This document shows, one piece after another, positions 1 through 42,899 of a DNA stretch of 42,899 nt. Numbering within the stretch: position 1 is the first letter of the stretch; every line of letters begins with the position of its first letter. Source of the DNA: a virus. Made by a program: the position numbers and the translations under genes. The DNA lies in IMG/VR virus record IMGVR_UViG_3300045988_037272, positions 1 to 42,899 of that record; one strand, 5' to 3'. The notes beneath the pieces are model-generated. The model had not been told where the DNA came from. It did no database searches and saw nothing but the letters and a program-made list of their open reading frames with translations.

Positions 1-55
1 ACTTCGAGGTCTATAACGGTGCGAACGGTCAAGGCGCTGGCGATATGCTCGCAAG
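1..55. repeat. 55-nt terminal direct repeat identical to 42845..42899 (assembly overlap of a circular or circularly permuted molecule)
   Basis: acttcgaggtctataacggtgcgaacggtcaaggcgctggcgatatgctcgcaag is present at both ends; read directly. Confidence 0.95.
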
Positions 56-3615: not shown

Positions 3616-4210
3616 GGACATTGCCGACTTGCGCGCGGACGTGCGGCGAAACTGCGCCATTTTTCTCGACCTCTGCAAGGAGGCGGGGCTTCCGGTTCTG
3701 GTGACCGAGACGGTCAGGGATAACGAGTACCAGCGCTATCTTGCTGCAAACGGCTACGCGGCAAAGACCGCGACGCGCCCGACGTTTCACGGTGTCAAGG
3801 CTGGGCTTGCGTTCGACATCTGCAAAAACGTCAAGGGGCATGAGTACGACGATCCGTCGTTCTTCGCCCGCTGCGGGCAGATCGGCAAGCAGGTCGGCTT
3901 TTCGTGGGGTGGCGACTGGAAGAAGTTCCCTGACAAGCCGCATTTTCAGTGGGACGACCATATGCGATACACAGGGAGCATGATTTTGGCGGGCAAGTAT
4001 CCGCCGGAAATGGAGGAGTATATGGACCAGGCAACGTTTAACAAGATGATGGACAGCTATTTGGCGCAGCTCGGCACCAAGCCCGTCTCTTCGTGGGCGG
4101 CCAAAGACTGGGCGGCGGCAAAGGCTATGGGCATTACAGACGGCAGCGCGCCGCAGAGACTTATCACGCGGCAGGAAGTCGTGACGATGATCCAGAGAGC
4201 GACAAAATAA
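3602..4210 (+). CDS. Endolysin, peptidase M15 (VanY / L-Ala-D-Glu peptidase-like) with SLH-like C-terminal repeat
   Basis: ATG 3602 follows AAGGAGAG. Motifs VTETVRDNEYQ, HGVKAGLAFDI and FSWGGDWKKFPDKPHFQW match the Zn-ligand pattern of the M15 family. The C-terminus WAAKDWAAAKAMGITDG..ITRQEVVTMIQR resembles an SLH/cell-wall-binding motif. Confidence 0.8.
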   Translation: MYHSRDIADLRADVRRNCAIFLDLCKEAGLPVLVTETVRDNEYQRYLAANGYAAKTATRPTFHGVKAGLAFDICKNVKGHEYDDPSFFARCGQIGKQVGFSWGGDWKKFPDKPHFQWDDHMRYTGSMILAGKYPPEMEEYMDQATFNKMMDSYLAQLGTKPVSSWAAKDWAAAKAMGITDGSAPQRLITRQEVVTMIQRATK

Positions 4211-4286
4211 CGTGTCCTAATCGGGCACAGGAAGGAGCGGGCGGCGAAAGCCCACGCGCAAGCGCCTCTGCAAGCCCTACACGGGC

Positions 4287-8708: not shown

Positions 8709-9851
8709 TCATTTGTCATTACGACTAAGCTGATTAACCCCTTTATGCGCGGCTTCGGTGGAAACATGGACATATCGTTGTGTCGATGATAACTTTGCGT
8801 GGCGCATAATCTGTTGCAGCACGGGCAGCTCTACGCCCTTTTTAACGGCCTCTGTAGCCGTTGTGTGGCGGCAGGAGTATGGATTTAGGTCTCGCACTCC
8901 AACCGCGCTTGTAGTGGCGTGATAGGCCGTATAAAAGGTATTTTCATCGCCACCAAATATCTTTCCCGTTTTGCTGGTAGACTTTTCGCTTAACTCTTGC
9001 AGCACCGGTGCAATGAACTCAGGGAAAACGATAGGGGTATCTTTTCTTTTCTTTGTCTTTTTCCCGCAGCCGTAAATTTCAAGCCGGTCATAGTCAATCA
9101 TATCAGATTTGCACGCAAGCAATTCTCCCGGCATCATTGACGTGTAGATCATTAGCAGCATATAGCCGACAAAAACATTCCCTTCGTCCCATGCTTTCCA
9201 CATGGCGTTGACTTCGTCTTCGGTAAATGGTTCGGGGACTTTTTCTTCCAGCTCAGGCAAAACAATAAATCGCGACAGATTAACGGTTACTGGCCCATTG
9301 CTACCGCCGCTTGCCATAGCGCGCTTGTATAGATGAGATAGCAGGGACTTCATGTCTCGAGCGGTATAATATGACTTTGCTGCGGAGTTTACCGCGCCTT
9401 GTAGATCATCAATCGTTAGCTCATCTATTTTCCGGGCTATAATCGGTTCTAAACGCTCACGAGCTTTTTTGAATGCTATTTGCTTATCCTTTGACCGTGT
9501 CAGCATATCGTTTTCGCTCCACCCTTGCCAAAGCTCTAAGAGGGTCGGAGCTTCTTTTTGGAATTTTCCAGGGTCTTGAGAAGCGGCCCATTCCAAAGCA
9601 GCAGTTTTTGTAGGGAATCCCCCTTTAGTAGGCCTTCGACGAATTAGTCTAGGGGGTCCATCGTCGTCTTGCACGGTATATGAATATCCGGCAGCTTGAG
9701 CAGTCCATGTCTTACCGCGCCGAAAAGCTGTCCCCGTCCCGCTTCCGCGCTGTCTTCCACGCCGCTTTTCGACTATCTGCTTTTTGCCGCACATAGGACA
9801 AAACAGCGCGCCATCCGGCAGCGCTGCTTTACATTTGATGCAGTTTCCCAT
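8709..9851 (-). CDS. int: Tyrosine integrase with N-terminal zinc ribbon
   Basis: ATG 9851 follows GGAGGGG. N-terminus CIKC...CPMC. C-terminus SCRHTTATEA....IMRHAKLSSTQRYVHV (R, H-x-x-R and Y catalytic signature). Adjacent to attP. Confidence 0.9.
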   Translation of the reverse strand: MGNCIKCKAALPDGALFCPMCGKKQIVEKRRGRQRGSGTGTAFRRGKTWTAQAAGYSYTVQDDDGPPRLIRRRPTKGGFPTKTAALEWAASQDPGKFQKEAPTLLELWQGWSENDMLTRSKDKQIAFKKARERLEPIIARKIDELTIDDLQGAVNSAAKSYYTARDMKSLLSHLYKRAMASGGSNGPVTVNLSRFIVLPELEEKVPEPFTEDEVNAMWKAWDEGNVFVGYMLLMIYTSMMPGELLACKSDMIDYDRLEIYGCGKKTKKRKDTPIVFPEFIAPVLQELSEKSTSKTGKIFGGDENTFYTAYHATTSAVGVRDLNPYSCRHTTATEAVKKGVELPVLQQIMRHAKLSSTQRYVHVSTEAAHKGVNQLSRNDK

Positions 9852-9852
9852 G

Positions 9853-10266
9853 TCAGCCCCTCCAAAAACCATAGTCGGTGCAGTGCAGATCGATATACAC
9901 GCACCATGCGGCCAGCAGCACCACCGCGATGAACAAAATTAAAATCACGCCGTTGCGGATGCGGACGCCACGCCGCATGATCTCGATCATGTCGGCTTTT
10001 GCATCAACGTGGCGTTCCAATTCGTCATTACGCGCCTGCAATGTTTCCTCGGTCGGCGTCAAGTGTTCGGAAATCCCGAACACTTCATCAAGAGATATTC
10101 CCATTGCCTTGCAGATCGGCGCGACAGTGTAGATCGATGGTGCTTTGGAAAACTTAGAAAAGAAATTCTGCACGGTGGACAGTGGCACGCCGGAAGCGTT
10201 GGAAATGTCTTGATATGTTAGTTTCAGTTCTTCTTTACGGATTCTGCACACTTCTTGAATGTTCAT
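9853..10266 (-). CDS. XRE-family HTH protein with C-terminal transmembrane anchor
   Basis: LTYQDISNASGVPLSTVQNFFSK...ICKAMGISLDEVF is the HTH. A coiled-coil linker follows, then GVILILFIAVVLLAAWCVYI as the TM segment. The stop lies 1 nt before the int ATG, so the two are co-transcribed. Confidence 0.8.
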   Translation of the reverse strand: MNIQEVCRIRKEELKLTYQDISNASGVPLSTVQNFFSKFSKAPSIYTVAPICKAMGISLDEVFGISEHLTPTEETLQARNDELERHVDAKADMIEIMRRGVRIRNGVILILFIAVVLLAAWCVYIDLHCTDYGFWRG

Positions 10267-10435
10267 TTATGCCACCTTAATTTCTCCGATTTTTGCGCCG
10301 CAAAGTCGCAAGATATGGGTTTGTCGAACCACGTCGAGCGCTGTCTTATTGCAATGTTTCGGCATTGAATTACCAAACCAAAGTGGGCTACGGTGAAGGC
10401 AAGCAGCGGCGACCGCTCCCCGCTGGCTGCAAAAA

Positions 10436-10469
10436 GGCCCCGCCGTTTGTTGCAGAGGGCGGCGGGGCC
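10436..10469 (-). terminator. GC-rich hairpin; T tract only on the minus strand
   Basis: Stem ggccccgccg/cggcggggcc with a 14-nt loop. aaaaa lies 5' on the plus strand, giving ttttt after the stem on the minus strand. Confidence 0.55.
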
Positions 10470-10553
10470 TTACTTGGAGATATTGATGCTTGCACCGCTA
10501 TGTGCAACAATTGACATATAGCCCCGTTACTATAAATATTGGAGGGACACAAA

Positions 10554-10742
10554 ATGTTGTGTAATAGCGCGAAAGATGGTACAATAAAAAAGCAGATTAT
10601 GCGGAAAGACAATAAAAACAGCAAGAACGATCAAGCTTACCTTGAGGAATTGCGCGGGCAAATCCTTGGAATGATAGACAAGCTATCTGCTGCGGATTGC
10701 GCAGAAGTATTTTCAAAATTAAAAGAAAGAGGTGTGCTATGA
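10554..10742 (+). CDS. Hypothetical small protein (62 aa)
   Basis: ATG 10554 follows GGAGGG. AT-rich region. Confidence 0.5.
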   Translation: MLCNSAKDGTIKKQIMRKDNKNSKNDQAYLEELRGQILGMIDKLSAADCAEVFSKLKERGVL

Positions 10743-10930
10743 AGGGCTACGAGATTGACATTTCCAAGTTGGCAGAGAACAGCATCATCATGAAAGGCCA
10801 GATCAACGACGTTGTATTTGGATTGAAGGAAATCTCAGACAAGATCGACACGCTAATCGCGCTCAAGCAAGTTGAATTATCACTCCTGCAACAGCAGCGA
10901 GCGCCGCAATGCCAGAAAGAACAGCAGTAA
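10739..10930 (+). CDS. Hypothetical small coiled-coil protein (63 aa)
   Basis: ATGA overlap with the upstream gene; SD AGAGGTG. Its 3' end overlaps the convergent minus-strand ORF 10863..11054 by 68 nt. Confidence 0.5.
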   Translation: MKGYEIDISKLAENSIIMKGQINDVVFGLKEISDKIDTLIALKQVELSLLQQQRAPQCQKEQQ

Positions 10931-24444: not shown

Positions 24445-24912
24445 ATGAAAAAGTATATCGGAACGAAACTTATTGAGGCGGCACCGGCTATCCGCAAGGG
24501 AGGCAAGGTCTATGAGAAGACCCAGCCCATCCCGAGAAGCATGGACCCCGAGGAAGATGGCTACAAAGTCCGCTACCCTGACGGATACGAATCTTTCAGC
24601 CCGAAGCAGGTTTTTGAAGAGGCGTATCGACTGACTGACGGGCTGAGCTTTGGACTTGCTATCGAGGCGGCAAAGAAAGGAATGAAGATCGCACGCCGCG
24701 GCTGGAACGGTAAGAACCAGTACGTCGAGCTTGCGGAGCGTATCAGCTACGAGAACGCCGCGCACGAGGTAATTAACGCCAAGCACGAGGCCATCGGAAA
24801 CAAAGCGCTTGCCTTTGTCGGCACGTCCGGCGTACAGCTCGGATGGCTGGCCTCGCAGGCCGACATGCTGGCTGATGACTGGGTGATCGTCGGGGAAGCG
24901 GTGGCCGAATGA
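24445..24912 (+). CDS. DUF2829-domain protein (Tad2-like Thoeris anti-defence candidate) with N-terminal extension domain
   Basis: C-terminal half LSFGLAIEAAKKGMKIARRGWNGKNQYVEL......GWLASQADMLADDWVIV fits the DUF2829 signature. N-terminal half YIGTKLIEA.P.....GYKVRYPDGYESFSPKQVFEEAY is a domain often fused to it. Confidence 0.65.
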   Translation: MKKYIGTKLIEAAPAIRKGGKVYEKTQPIPRSMDPEEDGYKVRYPDGYESFSPKQVFEEAYRLTDGLSFGLAIEAAKKGMKIARRGWNGKNQYVELAERISYENAAHEVINAKHEAIGNKALAFVGTSGVQLGWLASQADMLADDWVIVGEAVAE

Positions 24913-25430
24913 GCATCAACATCAAGAAGTACACCAAAGACCAGATGGCAAAGATGGTGGAGGACGCTGTAGAACGGTGCGAATCTCTGAAAAGCGAAAA
25001 TGCCGATTTGATTGAGAAGGTGAAGAAAGAAATGGCGGAAAAGATTGCGCTGCGAAACGACCTGATGGCTATGACCCATTCGCATGAGAATTTGAAAGCC
25101 AAGAATGTTGTCCTGACCGAACAGATCAGCCAGATGAACGGAGAAGCCATCAACCGCGCCAACGAGATCGCGAATCTAAAAGCGGACGCGGATGCGCTGA
25201 GAAACAAGCTCGCCGACACCGAGGCGGCGCTGGGGCGGGCGAACGCGTGCATTGCTACCATGCAGGTCGAAAAAGATCAGCAAACGAAAGAGATTTTCGA
25301 ATGGCAGGGAAGCGCGCAAGCATTGCATGATGACCTTTTGGATGCTCGAGATCGCGCCAATTACGCAGAAGCCCATCCATGGCGTAACCTGTGGGCGTGG
25401 GTGAAGAGAAAGCTGGTGCGCCATGAGTAA
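24909..25430 (+). CDS. Coiled-coil protein (173 aa)
   Basis: ATGA overlap. Long heptad-like charged sequence. Confidence 0.65.
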   Translation: MSINIKKYTKDQMAKMVEDAVERCESLKSENADLIEKVKKEMAEKIALRNDLMAMTHSHENLKAKNVVLTEQISQMNGEAINRANEIANLKADADALRNKLADTEAALGRANACIATMQVEKDQQTKEIFEWQGSAQALHDDLLDARDRANYAEAHPWRNLWAWVKRKLVRHE

Positions 25431-25734
25431 ACCGCGCTACAGTTGGTGGGGATATGTAAAAGCCATTATCCGCCGCTACGGCCCCGACCGAGAACAGGAG
25501 TTGCATGGAGTGGCTTTGTTAGAAAACAACGCAGTGCGCAAGGCAGTGAGCGAAACGAGGTCAATGCAAGACGGAGAAGAGCGCTTGAAATTTATCCGAC
25601 TTGTGTTCTGGGACAAGACCCACACGCTCGAAGGGGCGGCAATGGCGGTCAACTGTTCCGACCGGACGGCAAGGCGCTGGCATACGGATTTCATTAAGTG
25701 CGTCGCCCGGAATTACGGCCTGCTCGATGATTAA
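25423..25734 (+). CDS. Late-gene transcriptional activator candidate (RinA/ArpU-like, sigma region-4-like C-terminus)
   Basis: Last gene before the packaging module. LEGAAMAVNCSDRTARRWHTDFIKCVARNYGLL is HTH-like. The function is inferred from position and pattern. Confidence 0.55.
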   Translation: MSKPRYSWWGYVKAIIRRYGPDREQELHGVALLENNAVRKAVSETRSMQDGEERLKFIRLVFWDKTHTLEGAAMAVNCSDRTARRWHTDFIKCVARNYGLLDD

Positions 25735-26216
25735 AAGTTGGCCTTAAAAAGCCATTTGTTTATGAGATAATAGAATCGCAGAGGTGTAAAAGCCTTTGCG
25801 GTTCTCTCATTTATGGCGTTCACCTCCTGCGCCATAGCGGGGCGCGGTGCTTTTCATCTTTTCACACCGCCCCCGCGATATGCCGCACGCACGATGCAGC
25901 CCACGATCAGGGCCGAAAGGTCGCGCCTTTCATGCGGCACAGGACCCCGCGCACCTCTCAACGATGTGGCCCAGCGGGGACATACGCGGCATAGGTGCCC
26001 CGTGAGGGGAGACCACAGCGAGTGACGGGGACTTTCCCCGAAGCGCTAAAGCAGGGCAGGACTGCAATGCCGTACCAAAAGAGGAGAGCCGCTGCCTTTG
26101 GCAATGGGCAAAGCCCGCCTGAAAGTGCGGCAAGTGTAGCCCATACGGGCGGGGAAGGACTGTTACTGTAGCCAAGGGGCGGGGGCTGGTAGCAAAATTG
26201 ATTTGAGGTGGTGGCA
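25735..26216 (+). other. 482-nt GC-rich non-coding region upstream of terS (candidate structured RNA / late leader / packaging signal)
   Basis: Largest gap in the genome. The only ORFs are SD-less Arg/Pro/Ala-rich junk. Many short GC helices are present, some with GNRA-type loops (see findings). Confidence 0.5.
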
Positions 26217-26609
26217 ATGGCTGCGCGTCTGACAGACCGGCAGAAAAAGAAAATACTGGCGGACTATGTGCAGACGAACAACTATTGCGCCACAGCGAAA
26301 ATCAACGGCGTGTCCGCAACGACCGTTAAGAACCTTGTGCGGGCAAATGCTGACATTGTGGAAAAGTGCGAGCAAAAAAAGGAAGAGAACACCGCCGATG
26401 TGATGGAGTACATGAACGACCACAAAGACCTTGTGTGTTCGTTCATCGGCAAGGGGCTTGAAATGCTCAACAACCCGGAGAAACTGGCGGCGGCAAATCT
26501 CAGCCAAATCACAACGGCAATGGGAACGCTGATCGACAAGTGGGCGATGGTGCAAGAGAAAACCGGAGATAACAAGGACGATGGTGTGATGGTGGTTATC
26601 GATGTCTAA
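26217..26609 (+). CDS. terS: Terminase small subunit
   Basis: ATG 26217 follows GAGGTGG. LTDRQKKKILADYVQTNNYCATAKINGVSATTVKNLV is the HTH. Overlaps the terL start. Confidence 0.75.
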   Translation: MAARLTDRQKKKILADYVQTNNYCATAKINGVSATTVKNLVRANADIVEKCEQKKEENTADVMEYMNDHKDLVCSFIGKGLEMLNNPEKLAAANLSQITTAMGTLIDKWAMVQEKTGDNKDDGVMVVIDV

Positions 26610-27846
26610 GATACTTCTTTCGCAAAAAATCGCGCCGGTGTTCTATGGCATTGCAAAAGACGTGTTTCAACATGGGCACACGCATTACGATTTCAGCGGC
26701 GGTCGAGGTTCGCTAAAGTCTTCGACGGTATCTATCCTTGTCCCGCTGCTCCTAATGCAGAGGAAAAACCGAAATTGCCATGCGCTGGTACTGCGTAAAG
26801 TAGCAAATACTATCCGAGATAGTGTGTATGCTCAGTACATTTGGGCAATCGGAGAACTGGGGGCGGCTCAGTATTGGGAAGCCAAGGTTTCCCCGATGGA
26901 GCTGATTTATAAGCCTACCGGCCAAAAGATTATGTTCCGCGGCGCGGATGACCCCATGAAGATTAAGTCCATCAAAGTGCCGTTCGGTTATATTGCTGTG
27001 ACGCACTTTGAAGAAAAAGACCAGTTTGCCGGACGCGCGGAAATCCGAACAATTTTGCAGTCCACCATGCGCGGCGGCTCGGTGTTTTGGAACTTTGAGA
27101 GCTATAACCCGCCTATCTCGCGTGACAACTGGGCAAACAAAGACAGTTTGGAGGAACGCGCCGACCGCCTGTGCCACAAGTCAACATATCTGCAAGCACC
27201 GCCCGAGTGGCTGGGGCAGCAGTTCCTTGATGAAGCGGAACACCTGAAAGCCACAGACGAGCGGGCATATCAGCATGAATATTTGGGCGTGCCTGTTGGA
27301 ACTGGCGGCAATGTGTTTGAGAATTTGGAACTGCGGGAGATTACAGACGAGGAAATCAGCCACTTTGATAGGATTTATCAGGGCGTGGACTATGGGTGGT
27401 TCCCTGACCCGTTTGCATTTATCCGCGTGCACTACGACAAGGCGCGGGAGACAATTTACCTGATAGATGAGATATATCAAAACAAACTTTCCAACGAGCA
27501 GAGCGCGGGCATGATTAAGGCAAAAGGATACGCCAGCGCCTATATCATCTGCGACAGCGCAGAGCCTAAAAGCGTAGCCGACTTCCGGGCTATGGGATTG
27601 CCTGCCAAAGCTGCCGTAAAGGGACCAGACAGCGTGGCTTACGGCATGAAGTGGCTGCAACGCCGGAAGATTGTTATTGACCGTAGACGCACGCCGCACG
27701 CCTATGACGAGTTTGTAAACTACGAATACGACCGTGACAAAGACGGAAACTTTATCAGCGGCTACCCAGACGAGAAGAACCATTTGATAGACGCACTGCG
27801 CTATGCAGTTGAGCCAATTAGCCGCAGAATGGGAGTTATCGCATGA
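26602..27846 (+). CDS. terL: Terminase large subunit (PBSX/Terminase_3-like)
   Basis: GGRGSLKS Walker-A-like motif. Size of 414 aa and position between terS and portal. Confidence 0.9.
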   Translation: MSKILLSQKIAPVFYGIAKDVFQHGHTHYDFSGGRGSLKSSTVSILVPLLLMQRKNRNCHALVLRKVANTIRDSVYAQYIWAIGELGAAQYWEAKVSPMELIYKPTGQKIMFRGADDPMKIKSIKVPFGYIAVTHFEEKDQFAGRAEIRTILQSTMRGGSVFWNFESYNPPISRDNWANKDSLEERADRLCHKSTYLQAPPEWLGQQFLDEAEHLKATDERAYQHEYLGVPVGTGGNVFENLELREITDEEISHFDRIYQGVDYGWFPDPFAFIRVHYDKARETIYLIDEIYQNKLSNEQSAGMIKAKGYASAYIICDSAEPKSVADFRAMGLPAKAAVKGPDSVAYGMKWLQRRKIVIDRRRTPHAYDEFVNYEYDRDKDGNFISGYPDEKNHLIDALRYAVEPISRRMGVIA

Positions 27847-31501: not shown

Positions 31502-31616
31502 CGGTAAAAGCCGCAACTGCGGATTTTATACAAATTTGGCTATCTGCAAGCCTAAAAGTGCAGGCGGGACGGTCACGGCAACGACCTAAAAAGCCTATCC
31601 CGTAAGGAGATGAAAC

Positions 31617-32183
31617 ATGAAGAAAGAGGATTTGCTGAACATCGGCCTGACGGAAGAGCAGGCGGACAAGGTTTTTGCCATGAATGGCAAAGACATCGAG
31701 AAGCACAAGAAAGCCGCAGAGGACGCGAAAGCGGACAAAGAAGCGCTTGAGCAGCAGGTAGCTGATCGCGATAGGGACATCGAATCCCTGAAAAAGGCGA
31801 ACGGTGACGCGGACGGCATCAAGAAGCAACTCGAAGAGTTACAGGGCAAGTACGACAAGGAAACCGAAGCGTACAAGGCCCAGCTTGCACAGCGTGACTA
31901 TCAGTCCGCTATCGACAAGGCAATCTCTGACAGCGGCATCAAGTTCACTTCCAAGTCTGCGGAAAAGGCATTTCGCGACGGTATCGGTGACAGCAAGCTC
32001 GAAATGAAGGACGGCGCTTTGAGTGGGTTTGACAAGTACCTCGAAAAAGCAAAGTCCGATGACCCCAGCGCATTTGTCAAAGCCGGTGCGCGTGTTGACA
32101 CGCAAGGCTCGCTTGAGGGCGGGCAGCATGAAAACAAGCCTATGACTTTGGCGGCCGCGCTCCACGAACAATACGATAAGTAA
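31617..32183 (+). CDS. Scaffolding protein (Phage_GP20-like)
   Basis: MKKEDLLNIGLTEEQADKVFAMNGKDIEKHK followed by coiled coil. Lies immediately upstream of the major capsid gene. Confidence 0.8.
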   Translation: MKKEDLLNIGLTEEQADKVFAMNGKDIEKHKKAAEDAKADKEALEQQVADRDRDIESLKKANGDADGIKKQLEELQGKYDKETEAYKAQLAQRDYQSAIDKAISDSGIKFTSKSAEKAFRDGIGDSKLEMKDGALSGFDKYLEKAKSDDPSAFVKAGARVDTQGSLEGGQHENKPMTLAAALHEQYDK

Positions 32184-41975: not shown

Positions 41976-42899
41976 TAAAGCGATAAGTGACCTTACCCAA
42001 GCGACACAGATCACGGGCGAAGACCTTTTCGTCTTGCAGCAGAACGGCGAGGCGAAAAAACTCAAGGGCAGTCAGGTAGTGCAATACGCAAAGGATTCCG
42101 TTGCGGCGGAGGTGCAGGGCGTCAAGGAGTATGCTGACAGCGCCAAAGCATCGGCTGATGCGGCGGCAAAGGACGCAACCAGAGCGGCGACCGCAGCACA
42201 GGGCATCGACGACAAGGTTGCTGCGGCTGACGCTTCCGCAAAGGCGGCGGCATCTTCTGCGGCGGCGGCTGCTGCATCGGCGACCGGCGTCGATGAGAAG
42301 GTACAGGCCGCGCAGACGGCGGCGGACAATGCTGCCAAGTCTGAGACGGCGGCAAAGGCTGCACAGACCGGAGCCGTCAACGCGCAGAAAGCGGCGGAGA
42401 CGGCGCAGACCGGCGCACAGACCGCTAAGACGGCAGCGGAATCAGCACAGGAAGCCGCGGAGAGCGCAAAAGACGCTGCGGCAGAAAGTTCGACCGCTGC
42501 GGGGCAGAAAGCCACAAAGGCCGCTCAAAGCGCCGAGGACGCGGCATCTGCCAAGTCTGCGGCGGAGACGGCGAAGACAGACGCACAGGCGGCACGCGAC
42601 GCCATTGTCAACATGATCGTCGATGCGGTGACGCTTGAGACGGGCGAGCCCGCGACGGTGAGCAAATCTCTTGTGGACAACGTTTACAAGCTCGTCTTCG
42701 GCTTGCCGCGCGGCAACACGGGCGCAACCGGCCCGCAGGGTGCAACAGGCAACGGGATTTCCGGTATCGCTCTCAAGAGCGGCAACCATGCTCCCGGCAC
42801 AAGCGATGTGTACACCATCACCCTGACAGACGGCAAGACGTTTGACTTCGAGGTCTATAACGGTGCGAACGGTCAAGGCGCTGGCGATATGCTCGCAAG
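41968..42899 (+). CDS. Tail fibre protein, N-terminal part (runs off the window end, continues at 1..995; about 623 aa in total)
   Basis: ATG 41968 follows GAGG. A conserved N-terminus ADKAISDLTQATQITGEDLFVLQQNG, about 160 aa of Ala/Lys/Glu-rich coiled coil, then collagen-like GNTGATGPQGATGNG. No stop before the window end. Absent from the track. Confidence 0.8.
   Translation, partial: MADKAISDLTQATQITGEDLFVLQQNGEAKKLKGSQVVQYAKDSVAAEVQGVKEYADSAKASADAAAKDATRAATAAQGIDDKVAAADASAKAAASSAAAAAASATGVDEKVQAAQTAADNAAKSETAAKAAQTGAVNAQKAAETAQTGAQTAKTAAESAQEAAESAKDAAAESSTAAGQKATKAAQSAEDAASAKSAAETAKTDAQAARDAIVNMIVDAVTLETGEPATVSKSLVDNVYKLVFGLPRGNTGATGPQGATGNGISGIALKSGNHAPGTSDVYTITLTDGKTFDFEVYNGANGQGAGDMLA
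42845..42899. repeat. Copy of the 55-nt terminal repeat (same as 1..55)
   Basis: Identical sequence; read directly. Confidence 0.95.

Follow-up and report, generated by a model that had tools for sequence, protein, structure and literature searches.

A non-coding region ahead of the terminase genes

The DNA studied here is the IMG/VR virus record IMGVR_UViG_3300045988_037272, taken over its whole length of 42,899 nucleotides (nt), which we call the window. Its first and last 55 nt (window 1-55 and 42845-42899) are identical, and this exact terminal repeat indicates that the window is a complete, circularly assembled genome, of 42,844 bp. A tyrosine integrase/recombinase on the minus strand (8709-9872) marks the phage as temperate. 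The region in question is a gap of 482 nt (25735-26216), which is bounded by the stop of a RinA-like open reading frame (ORF) of 103 amino acids (aa), at 25734, and by the conserved ATG of terS, at 26217. We found that this gap is a non-coding mosaic of six autonomous modules, Ma to Mf, that are structured on the plus strand. The features of the region, with Shine-Dalgarno abbreviated as SD and with z values from folding, are the following.

25423-25734: RinA-like ORF of 103 aa (phrog_36, E 6e-7; TIGR01636, E 1.6e-4, under the family cutoff)
25735..25771, plus strand: spacer 3' of the RinA-like gene, with a small hairpin, GGCCUUAAAAAGCC, at 25739-25754
25744-25771: promoter-like match, TTAAAA-16 nt-TGaGATAAT, a candidate from a consensus scan only
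25762..25877, plus strand: Ma, three stable hairpins (z = -7.7)
25772-25805: Ma hairpin 1, with an outer extension at 25762-25810
25812-25836: Ma hairpin 2, with loop UUCACCUCCUG
25837-25876: Ma hairpin 3, with a 12-bp GC stem and a U-rich loop
25881..25939, plus strand: Mb, a 59-nt mini-cloverleaf (z = -2.75)
25940..25985, plus strand: Mc, the hairpin CAGGA-CCCCGC-G-CAC-CUCUCAACGAU-GUG-GCCCA-GCGGGG-ACAUAC
25986..26077, plus strand: Md, a 92-nt tRNA-shaped cloverleaf in RNAfold (z = -3.4)
26078..26134, plus strand: Me, the purine-rich linker AAAGAGGAGA and a hairpin closed by GCCGC/GCGGC (26088-26131)
26135..26198, plus strand: Mf, the hairpin GCCC-NNNN-GGGC, the stretch GGGKAAAGWCUG, a second hairpin and GCAAAA
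26199..26216, plus strand: terS start region, with SD GAGGUGG at 26204-26210 and ATG at 26217
26602-27846: terL, with a Terminase_3 match, downstream of terS

The original prediction for this DNA described a non-coding gap after a late activator gene and before terS, and both parts of this description hold. The boundaries are exact, and the RinA-like ORF and terS flank the gap. A Pfam search of the four ORFs within it gave no match, and in close relatives indels of 1, 2 and 4 nt fall within these ORFs and break their frames; on these grounds a degraded protein gene was rejected. The GC content is 58% in the gap compared to 52% in the genome. The plus strand of the full gap folds with a minimum free energy (MFE) of -208.6 kcal/mol (z = -3.4, a value equalled by none of 100 shuffled sequences), and the minus strand has z = -2.3. 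Among the single modules, z is lowest for Ma, followed by Md and Mb, and it lies at about -1 to 0 for Mc, Me and Mf. The gap had also been called by far the largest in the genome, which is overstated, as about 600 nt beside the integrase module (10267-10862) contain only short overlapping ORFs of at most 78 aa. That region rivals the gap in size and may contain attP and regulatory sequence.

In an Rfam search of the whole window at the gathering score there was no match within the gap, in keeping with the proposal of a novel RNA. In E-value mode, applied to the gap and three related loci, nothing was found for Md, Mb, Ma, Me or Mf, and ARAGORN found no tRNA in the window. A weak match to CRISPR-DR28 (26107-26152) was dismissed because its alignment requires a 23-nt insertion. 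A repeat search showed neither a template/variable-repeat pair, as in a diversity-generating retroelement, nor long-range repeats involving the gap.

Six modules and their spread among related phages

A blastn search of GenBank phages gave two uncultured human-gut phages, MT835513 and MT836871 (L001 and L002; L numbers are our handles for related loci). In MT835513, window positions 25778-25987 are 95% conserved and 26135-26197 are 85% conserved. The two conserved blocks are 407 nt apart, compared to 147 nt in the window, and a tRNA-Gly starts exactly at the equivalent of window position 25986, which is the place of Md. In MT836871, conservation is restricted to positions 25982-26078 (91%); the surrounding non-coding region, upstream of terS, is about 1 kb long and contains three tRNAs. 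An 18-mer of Md is present in at least 120 IMG/VR contigs. When the window was mapped by blastn onto 121 loci chosen by this 18-mer, the gap divided into six blocks of very different frequency.

25762-25877: Ma block, 16 of the 121 loci
25878-25942: Mb block, about 35 loci
25940-25985: Mc block, about 40 loci
25986-26077: Md block, 120 loci (by selection)
26079-26134: Me block, 19-22 loci
26135-26200: Mf block, about 86 loci

A second scan, seeded with the core of Mf, gave at least 120 viral contigs, of which about 43% carry the Md 18-mer, and in these loci the modules occur in essentially every combination. At this genomic position the modules recur separately in at least 220 gut-phage contigs. 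The smallest arrays consist of Md and Mf, with a length of about 160 nt, and in L139, a Clostridia metagenome-assembled genome from rabbit gut, Md stands alone in a 160-nt gap between two phage genes. Phages with terS genes that are 92-96% identical differ in their module sets. All supported helices are local to single modules. RNAfold gives one long-range pairing (about 26088-26100 with 26205-26216), and this involves Me, which is missing from most arrays. The original idea of one large nested RNA therefore gives way to modules that shuffle independently and alternate with tRNA genes. When the Md 18-mer was scanned against bacterial assemblies (genome_contigs), 5 of 30 matches proved true. 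All five lie in metagenome-assembled genomes of the Clostridia type (from Oscillospiraceae, Lachnospiraceae and other Clostridia), and the host is therefore placed there. The other matches in bacterial contigs were mostly due to chance (a KH-domain gene, Actinobacteria).

The acceptor-like stem of Md has 7 bp (GCGGCAU/AUGCCGU) and is followed by ACCA. A 2-nt linker leads to the D-like arm, which has stems of 3 bp and 4 bp and a GNRA tetraloop cap, the long arm consists of 4 bp, a conserved internal loop AGYGA/AAG, 6 bp and a variable loop of 3-5 nt, and the T-like arm is GCAG-GGCAGGA-CUGC. By eye, the AGYGA/AAG loop was also considered as a K-turn or a loop E, and it fits neither consensus cleanly. 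In an alignment of 70 distinct sequences (A1), 97.4% of the cells are paired and 18 of the 28 pairs have changed on both sides. None of 500 shuffles reached the observed values, and sliding the partners dropped pairing to 36-42%. Variants of the acceptor stem include a change from GCGGCAU/AUGCCGC to GGGCUGU/ACAGCCC or GCGGAAA/UUUCCGC; the T-like helix does not vary, which is due only to its being fixed in the search pattern. The frequent G-U pairs indicate that the fold is specific to the plus strand. A covariance model of Md found exactly one copy per locus, at 85-121 bits, none in L001, and no second, divergent copy at any locus. The 3' tail is ACCA in 56 of 74 variants, despite the many different modules downstream. 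The leader at positions -4 to -1 is AUAU in 79 of 115 copies, with U at position -1 in 85 and C in 28. The mean column identity is 86%, with invariant loop nucleotides and covarying stems, in at least 120 contigs from several Clostridia lineages. Constant loops together with covarying stems indicate purifying selection on the RNA and not decay.

With tRNAs, Md shares the four-arm cloverleaf, the 7-bp acceptor stem and the 3' NCCA. It does not have the conserved D- and T-loop nucleotides, a 5-bp T stem, or a 7-nt anticodon loop with U33. It is not called by ARAGORN, and it matches no Rfam model, including tRNA (RF00005), even at E <= 10. We therefore regard Md as an RNA that is not a tRNA, yet has a tRNA-like leader and swaps places with the tRNAs of the arrays.

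Mb has a 7-bp closing stem, UGCCGCA/UGCGGCA, around three hairpins. Its 5' flank is AUAU and its 3' tail in the window is A-CAG, with no CCA. In an alignment of 27 distinct sequences (A2), 97.2% of the cells are paired, and both strands have changed in the closing stem and in two of the three hairpins, namely CA/UG to UG/CA, GCCC/GGGC to CCCC/GGGG, and GAAAGG/CCUUUC to GGGAGG/CCUCCC to GGCGGG/CCCGCC. A 3-bp helix, GCA/UGC, is weak (86% paired) and is unsupported by compensatory change. For the interior of Mb, the pairing ggcc-GAAA-ggtc had been proposed; covariation favours GCCC/GGGC and GAAAGG/CCUUUC in its place. Mb lies immediately 5' of Mc in 52 of 135 array-type copies of Mc.

The changes in Ma among homologues are one-sided only and mostly wobble-compatible; the homologues are too much alike to provide compensatory evidence. 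In RNAalifold, AUGRGA (25762-25767) pairs with UCUCAU (25805-25810), with A-U to G-U variation, which suggests that the spacer at 25735-25771 is itself transcribed from upstream, by read-through. The hairpin at 25772-25805 with its tail CUCAUUUAUG passes a lax terminator scan, which gave 3 sites compared to 2.2 expected by chance, and this tail can pair otherwise. The loop of Ma hairpin 2 (25819-25829) equals the anti-SD end of 16S rRNA and is complementary to the SD of terS, which may be cis translational control or coincidence.

The apical part of Me contains indels among relatives, and its z is -1.1. Mf is always the last module, and the start and ribosome-binding site of at least six different first genes usually lie 5-25 nt downstream of it. 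Its first hairpin has variable loops and one compensatory change (GCCC/GGGC to ACCC/GGGU). Its second hairpin has an invariant G-rich loop, AAGGGGYGGG, with 21 one-sided wobble-compatible changes and 2 breaks. As z is about 0 for Mf and this one-sided evidence is only wobble-compatible, Mf may have a role at the DNA level. The terS start, ATGGCUGCGCGUCUG, is conserved in relatives. In many of them (L117, L036, L017, L046 and others) about 280 additional nt (AATAATTTGACAACGCTTATCGGCGTATCAAAGCG...) lie between Mf and terS, and these could be an RNA module or a small gene.

The expectation of a conserved RNA structure on the plus strand is thus borne out, with covariation for Md, Mb and Mc. Nearly all of the helices that the original prediction had read by eye are present, and most have comparative support: those at 25772-25805, 25812-25836 and 25837-25876, UGCCGCA/UGCGGCA at 25881-25939, CCCCGC/GCGGGG at 25945-25979, CCCC-GUGA-GGGG, AGCG..CGGGG..CCCCG..CGCU, GCCGC/GCGGC at 26088-26131 and GCCC-AUAC-GGGC. 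It missed the most informative features, which are the cloverleaf ending in ACCA and the abiF-type hairpin. We consider Md, Mb and Mf to be widespread RNA families that have no match in Rfam 15; Ma and Me are less well supported as such.

Genuine tRNA genes are present in 43 of the 121 arrays selected by Md and in 43 of 99 arrays selected by Mf, every one on the array strand. Of 100 array tRNAs, 42 have AUAU and 17 have AUAC at positions -4 to -1; U is found at position -1 in 73 of them and C in 23, and at least 82 have an encoded NCCA. The leader AUAU|G, with U or C at -1, is thus shared by Mb, Md and the real tRNAs that occupy their slots in sibling phages. The slot directly 3' of Mc is occupied in 46 loci by Md or a tRNA, with Md in 19 and a genuine tRNA (Gln, Trp, Thr, Ser or Gly) in 27. 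Many array tRNAs are unusual (for example, L002 3388-3480, L001 3209-3290, L045, L020, L025 and L033). They are 82-93 nt long, with extra sequence in the anticodon or variable region, or have A34 anticodons (aat, atc, aaa, aga), or are typed as 'undetermined' by ARAGORN, and there is a continuum from canonical tRNAs to tRNA-shaped RNAs. The drum RNA (RF02958, 77 bits) is found in 8 of 220 related arrays (L140, at 4110-4215 on the minus strand, and L043, L106, L089, L125, L034, L027 and L051). It usually lies directly 5' of Md, often 6 nt upstream, and is without its usual terminator. A borderline match to int-alpA was seen in L140 at 3942-4016 (36.3 vs 35.8). We regard the locus as an array of the tRNA-island type that has no tRNAs in this particular phage, a known phenomenon in a varied form.

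Two further features of the window lie away from the gap. The GP20-b RNA motif (RF03003) at 31538-31597 on the plus strand, just upstream of an ORF at 31617-32183, scores 57.3 bits vs a gathering score of 36.2 and is the sole Rfam family in the window at that threshold. Positions 42337-42593 contain imperfect direct repeats with a 42-nt period (GCGGCGGAGACGGCGCAGACCGGCGCACAGACCGC-like), probably a repetitive Ala/Gln-rich coding segment across the circular junction.

The Mc hairpin and the abiF RNA

The abiF RNA (RF03085; AbiFr, RCd22) is the antitoxin RNA of the AbiF/Abi_2 HEPN toxin, in a type III-like toxin-antitoxin system. In Clostridioides difficile, RCd22, an RNA with abiF motifs, acts in cis to repress abiF and also in trans, where it binds the toxin directly and tightly and so neutralises it (PMC12373285). 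According to a review, one AbiFr RNA is bound per AbiF monomer, and single-stranded bulge nucleotides inhibit the HEPN RNase (PMC12737573).

The hairpin of Mc has two tiers. Its outer stem has 6 bp and is separated by a 1-nt bulge from an inner stem of 3 bp; the loop, CUCUCAACGAU, is 11 nt long, and the internal loop on the 3' side has 5 nt. Rfam gives a weak match to abiF here, in which a loop segment of 13 nt is identical. It scores 17 bits, the gathering score being 37 (E = 4.5 in a 751-nt search against all families). It stays under the gathering score because the inner stem is CAC/GUG rather than xGC/GCx. When viral contigs were scanned with the classical abiF loop 14-mer, 93 of the 119 sites folded as abiF hairpins, with an outer stem of 6-8 bp, a 1-nt bulge, the inner stem xGC/GCx, the same loop and a 3' internal loop of 4-6 nt. 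The two-tier hairpin with this loop is thus common to Mc, the Rfam consensus and the 93 viral hairpins. In the outer stem of Mc, four of six pairs covary, and the loop and the NCCCA bulge stay constant.

A metagenome scan with a 17-mer specific for Mc gave 120 loci, and in 24 of these an ORF of about 290 aa starts 12-58 nt downstream of the Mc-type hairpin. Five of these ORFs were searched against Pfam and all five are Abi_2 (PF07751; E about 1e-50 to 1e-55). The 24 loci have a TTGACA-17-TATAAT promoter followed by the hairpin and then a U-run, and their hairpins have the same CAGGAC 5' and ACAU 3' flanks as in the window. A U-tract was scored in 19 of them, and none has array modules or tRNAs. 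Conversely, 34 loci have array modules or tRNAs; Abi_2 is absent from all of these and a U-tract from 33. With our own hidden Markov model (HMM), no Abi_2 ORF was found in the window or in 220 array loci. As the same hairpin variant leads Abi_2 genes elsewhere and there is no Abi_2 gene near Mc, Mc can be considered an orphan homologue. On sequence grounds, it is an orphan, terminator-less copy of the AbiF leader RNA.

Such orphans may not be confined to these arrays. Among 120 loci with the classical abiF 14-mer (IMG/VR, L221-L340, from many environments), an Abi_2 ORF is detectable in two (L278 and L258). The abundance of viral abiF hairpins away from Abi_2 suggests that orphan abiF RNAs are a general phage feature. 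By eye, the neighbours of the viral abiF hairpins include terminase-, portal-, HNH endonuclease- and integrase-like genes. In marine and other metagenomes there is also a minimal variant (L345, L395, L413, L426, L360 and L375), in which the abiF loop is closed only by CCCAC/GUGGG, with a U-run directly after it and AUAGCAAUUU before it. This is possibly another subclass of AbiF-type leader or a terminator. Rince et al. in 2000 reportedly found that a DNA region of the lactococcal phage sk1 protects phage 712 from AbiF, and this region could be an early sighting of a phage anti-AbiF determinant. In cyanophage S-CREM1, an abiF RNA was annotated beside other non-coding RNAs, without interpretation (PMC9964418). 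We found no report of phage-borne orphan abiF RNAs as counter-defence in the literature searched.

A possible tRNA-punctuated array and its alternatives

What is demonstrated here, at the level of sequence, is that the array is modular, that its structures covary, that modules and tRNAs interchange, and that Mc is an orphan homologue of the AbiF hairpin. Our confidence in the structural claims is high. Our best explanation for these results, which we judge to be slightly better than evenly balanced, is that the gap is a polycistronic, tRNA-punctuated array of small RNAs ahead of the late operon, which would release small RNAs including an anti-AbiF decoy. Our confidence in the processing and counter-defence parts is moderate, at about an even chance. 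The array, on the plus strand, would be transcribed upstream of the late (terS-terL) operon and probably along with it, and host tRNA-processing enzymes would cut at Mb and Md, with RNase P at the 5' ends. In Firmicutes, CCA-less tRNA precursors are matured by RNase Z, and those containing CCA by exonucleases. Mb, which has no CCA, would then be cut by RNase Z on the 3' side of its discriminator A (...UGCGGC-A|CAGGAC...), and RNase P would cut 5' of the G1 of Md (...ACAUAC|GCGGCAU...). Once its 3' end is trimmed, Md would be free as a stable RNA, about 92 nt long and with CCA at its end. Mc would be excised as a 46-nt RNA (CAGGAC...ACAUAC), with ends essentially as in the native AbiF leader RNA, where they are set by the promoter and terminator; in the array they would be set by the processing of Mb and Md. 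As a captured, gene-less antitoxin hairpin, Mc may then bind the AbiF of the host (Abi_2, a HEPN RNase) in trans and block abortive infection. Mf is probably the structured 5' end or leader of the late mRNA. Md and Mb may act beyond punctuation, for example, as tRNA decoys.

The evidence for cleavage by RNase P at the 5' end of the acceptor stem is circumstantial: the leader and the -1 base of Md match those of the neighbouring tRNAs, and ACCA is present. It is known that an RCCA 3' end aids bacterial RNase P on non-tRNA substrates (PMC12710915). Hypervariable cassettes beside conserved flanking genes would fit an arms-race locus, as would a gene for a 155-aa protein with a Tad2-like Thoeris anti-defence domain (24445-24912, plus strand; PF11195, E 1.9e-19; phrog_872), which lies two genes, or 0.8 kb, upstream of the array, and this evidence is circumstantial as well. 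Phage tRNA regions have recently been reported to act as anti-defence loci (PMC13096335), which would fit as well.

Several points weigh against this explanation. Transcription, cleavage by RNase P and RNase Z, the stability of the RNAs and every function assigned to them are inferred. Md does not have the conserved D- and T-loop nucleotides, its T-like stem has 4 bp, and there is one additional base between the T-like and acceptor stems; with these departures from tRNA, recognition by RNase P is plausible as a prediction only. Mc stays under the abiF gathering score and does not lie in the 5' leader of an Abi_2 gene in this phage, as the same hairpin does in the 24 metagenome loci. The Abi_2 HMM came from a limited set, so that very divergent Abi_2 genes in array loci could escape it. 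RCd22 requires two abiF motifs and Mc is one hairpin; this objection is tempered by the AbiF loci found here, which likewise carry one hairpin. A cognate AbiF in the host of this phage is assumed, and the decoy might come late relative to AbiF activation if expression is only late and RinA-dependent. Comparative support is weak for Ma, Me and Mf.

The location between the RinA-like gene, whose TIGR01636 match is under cutoff, and terS also invites a reading in which the gap serves the late operon chiefly as a leader acting in cis. Ma would act as a terminator or antiterminator, Mf would act on translation or stability, the loop of the second Ma hairpin, which is complementary to the SD of terS, would pair with it, and the modules in between would be carried along as passengers. 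In line with this, a 14-bp hairpin whose tail is rich in U comes after the promoter-like match, and in L008 a comparable promoter and hairpin, with a clear U-run, precede the array. Mf is always next to the ribosome-binding site of the gene that opens the late operon, whichever gene this is. Ma is present in so few of the 121 related arrays, however, and its tail, UCUCAUUUAU, is a poor U-tract that can pair with the upstream AUGAGA instead. Moreover, a leader leaves the conserved, covarying and independently mobile Mb, Mc and Md unexplained, and we consider it quite unlikely as an account of the whole gap. The late-operon leader of the original prediction is thus possible for the first module, Ma, and the last, Mf, and fails for the rest. 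In that restricted form it is compatible with the punctuated array and does not replace it. It is improbable that the modules are decaying tRNA genes or selfish RNA cassettes, useless to the phage and hitch-hiking in a recombination hot spot. Such an origin would suit their alternation with tRNA genes, the extreme mosaicism and the odd neighbouring tRNAs (82-93 nt, with A34 anticodons or of undetermined type), but not the identity, invariant loops and covarying stems of Md across so many contigs, nor its lack of residual D-/T-loop similarity and of any Rfam tRNA score, nor the exact AbiF-type loop and bulge that Mc retains.

A single large 'ornate' RNA of the GOLLD or ROOL type, forming a folded or oligomeric particle with Mf as its 3' domain and a variable, tRNA-embedding 5' region, is very improbable. 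Both are phage RNAs near tRNA islands, and in GOLLD the 3' region is conserved and the 5' region varies, with tRNAs in a linker in some cases (PMC12286853, PMC5737381), so that the constant 3' position of Mf, the full-length MFE (z = -3.4) and the tRNA genes beside the related arrays, if not in the window itself, would all be in keeping. The GOLLD and ROOL covariance models nevertheless gave no match in the window or in 17 related loci, E-value mode included. Modules occurring in any combination and order, arrays of only Md and Mf, Md alone, and helices confined to their modules, with the one long-range pairing dependent on Me, do not suit a single RNA either. A pac or terminase-recognition site in the DNA, with GCGGCA as its repeated motif, was another proposal of the original prediction, and it fares worst; we consider it extremely improbable. 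The position directly upstream of terS would be appropriate and the three copies in the gap amount to about 4 times the genome density (1.5 per kb genome-wide), but these copies are strands of three closing stems of RNA helices (25933-25939, 25986-25992 and 26127-26131). Their variation is compensatory and includes G-U pairs, which would be A-C mismatches on the opposite strand, and phages with near-identical terS (92-96%) have different arrays.

The punctuated array can also be taken further, although we regard this extension as tentative and rather unlikely. The whole locus would then be a 'decoy array', a hypervariable phage island with RNA cargo that is diced by host RNase P and RNase Z and in which each cassette mimics an RNA that host immunity needs or attacks. 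Mc would mimic the AbiF antitoxin, the genuine and odd tRNAs would replace tRNAs cleaved by host defences, Md and Mb would be tRNA mimics soaking up tRNA-targeting effectors, and drum would belong to another RNA-associated system.

If the proposed explanation is true, the gut phages of Clostridia have a whole class of RNA-based counter-defence loci that protein-centred annotation fails to show. Mc would be the first candidate inhibitor of AbiF, whose toxin-antitoxin family is now regarded as the ancestor of Cas13, and a virus would be reusing host tRNA-processing enzymes to cut several small RNAs from one transcript. Whatever its function, Md is a rare example of a cloverleaf RNA that ends in CCA and yet is clearly no tRNA.

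Parts of this picture resemble known systems. The tRNA cluster of phage T4 encodes two stable non-tRNA RNAs, species 1 and 2, that are matured from a common precursor by the tRNA-processing machinery. The likeness lies in stable non-tRNA RNAs among phage tRNAs; there is no sequence relationship, and the T4 cluster is not in front of terminase genes. In phage tRNA islands with GOLLD, ROOL or drum, structured RNAs are likewise co-oriented and interspersed with tRNA genes (PMC5737381, PMC12286853). The gap differs from the GOLLD/ROOL islands in having no tRNA and no known family at the gathering score, and its modules are small (46-116 nt) and autonomous, compared to a single RNA of 600-800 nt. 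Engineered polycistronic tRNA-gRNA arrays use tRNA punctuation. The tRNA-like 't-elements' of plant mitochondria set RNA ends (PMC1920247), and in both cases tRNA-shaped elements serve as RNase P/Z signals that define the ends of neighbouring RNAs. In the array this use is inferred, and it would be a natural case in a bacterial virus, releasing small RNAs and not mRNAs. Compared to the native abiF RNA, Mc lacks an Abi_2 gene, a U-tract and its own promoter, and it is set between tRNA-shaped modules. Phage phiTE evades ToxIN by an RNA antitoxin mimic, pseudo-ToxI (PMC3594212), and other phages carry orphan antitoxins against DarTG (PMC11825919). Mc differs from pseudo-ToxI in that its predicted target is the HEPN protein AbiF and not ToxN, it is a single hairpin and not a set of tandem 36-nt repeats, and its activity is predicted only. 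Like pseudo-ToxI and the DarG-like orphans, it would be a phage-borne, gene-less antitoxin copy that acts in trans on an abortive-infection toxin.

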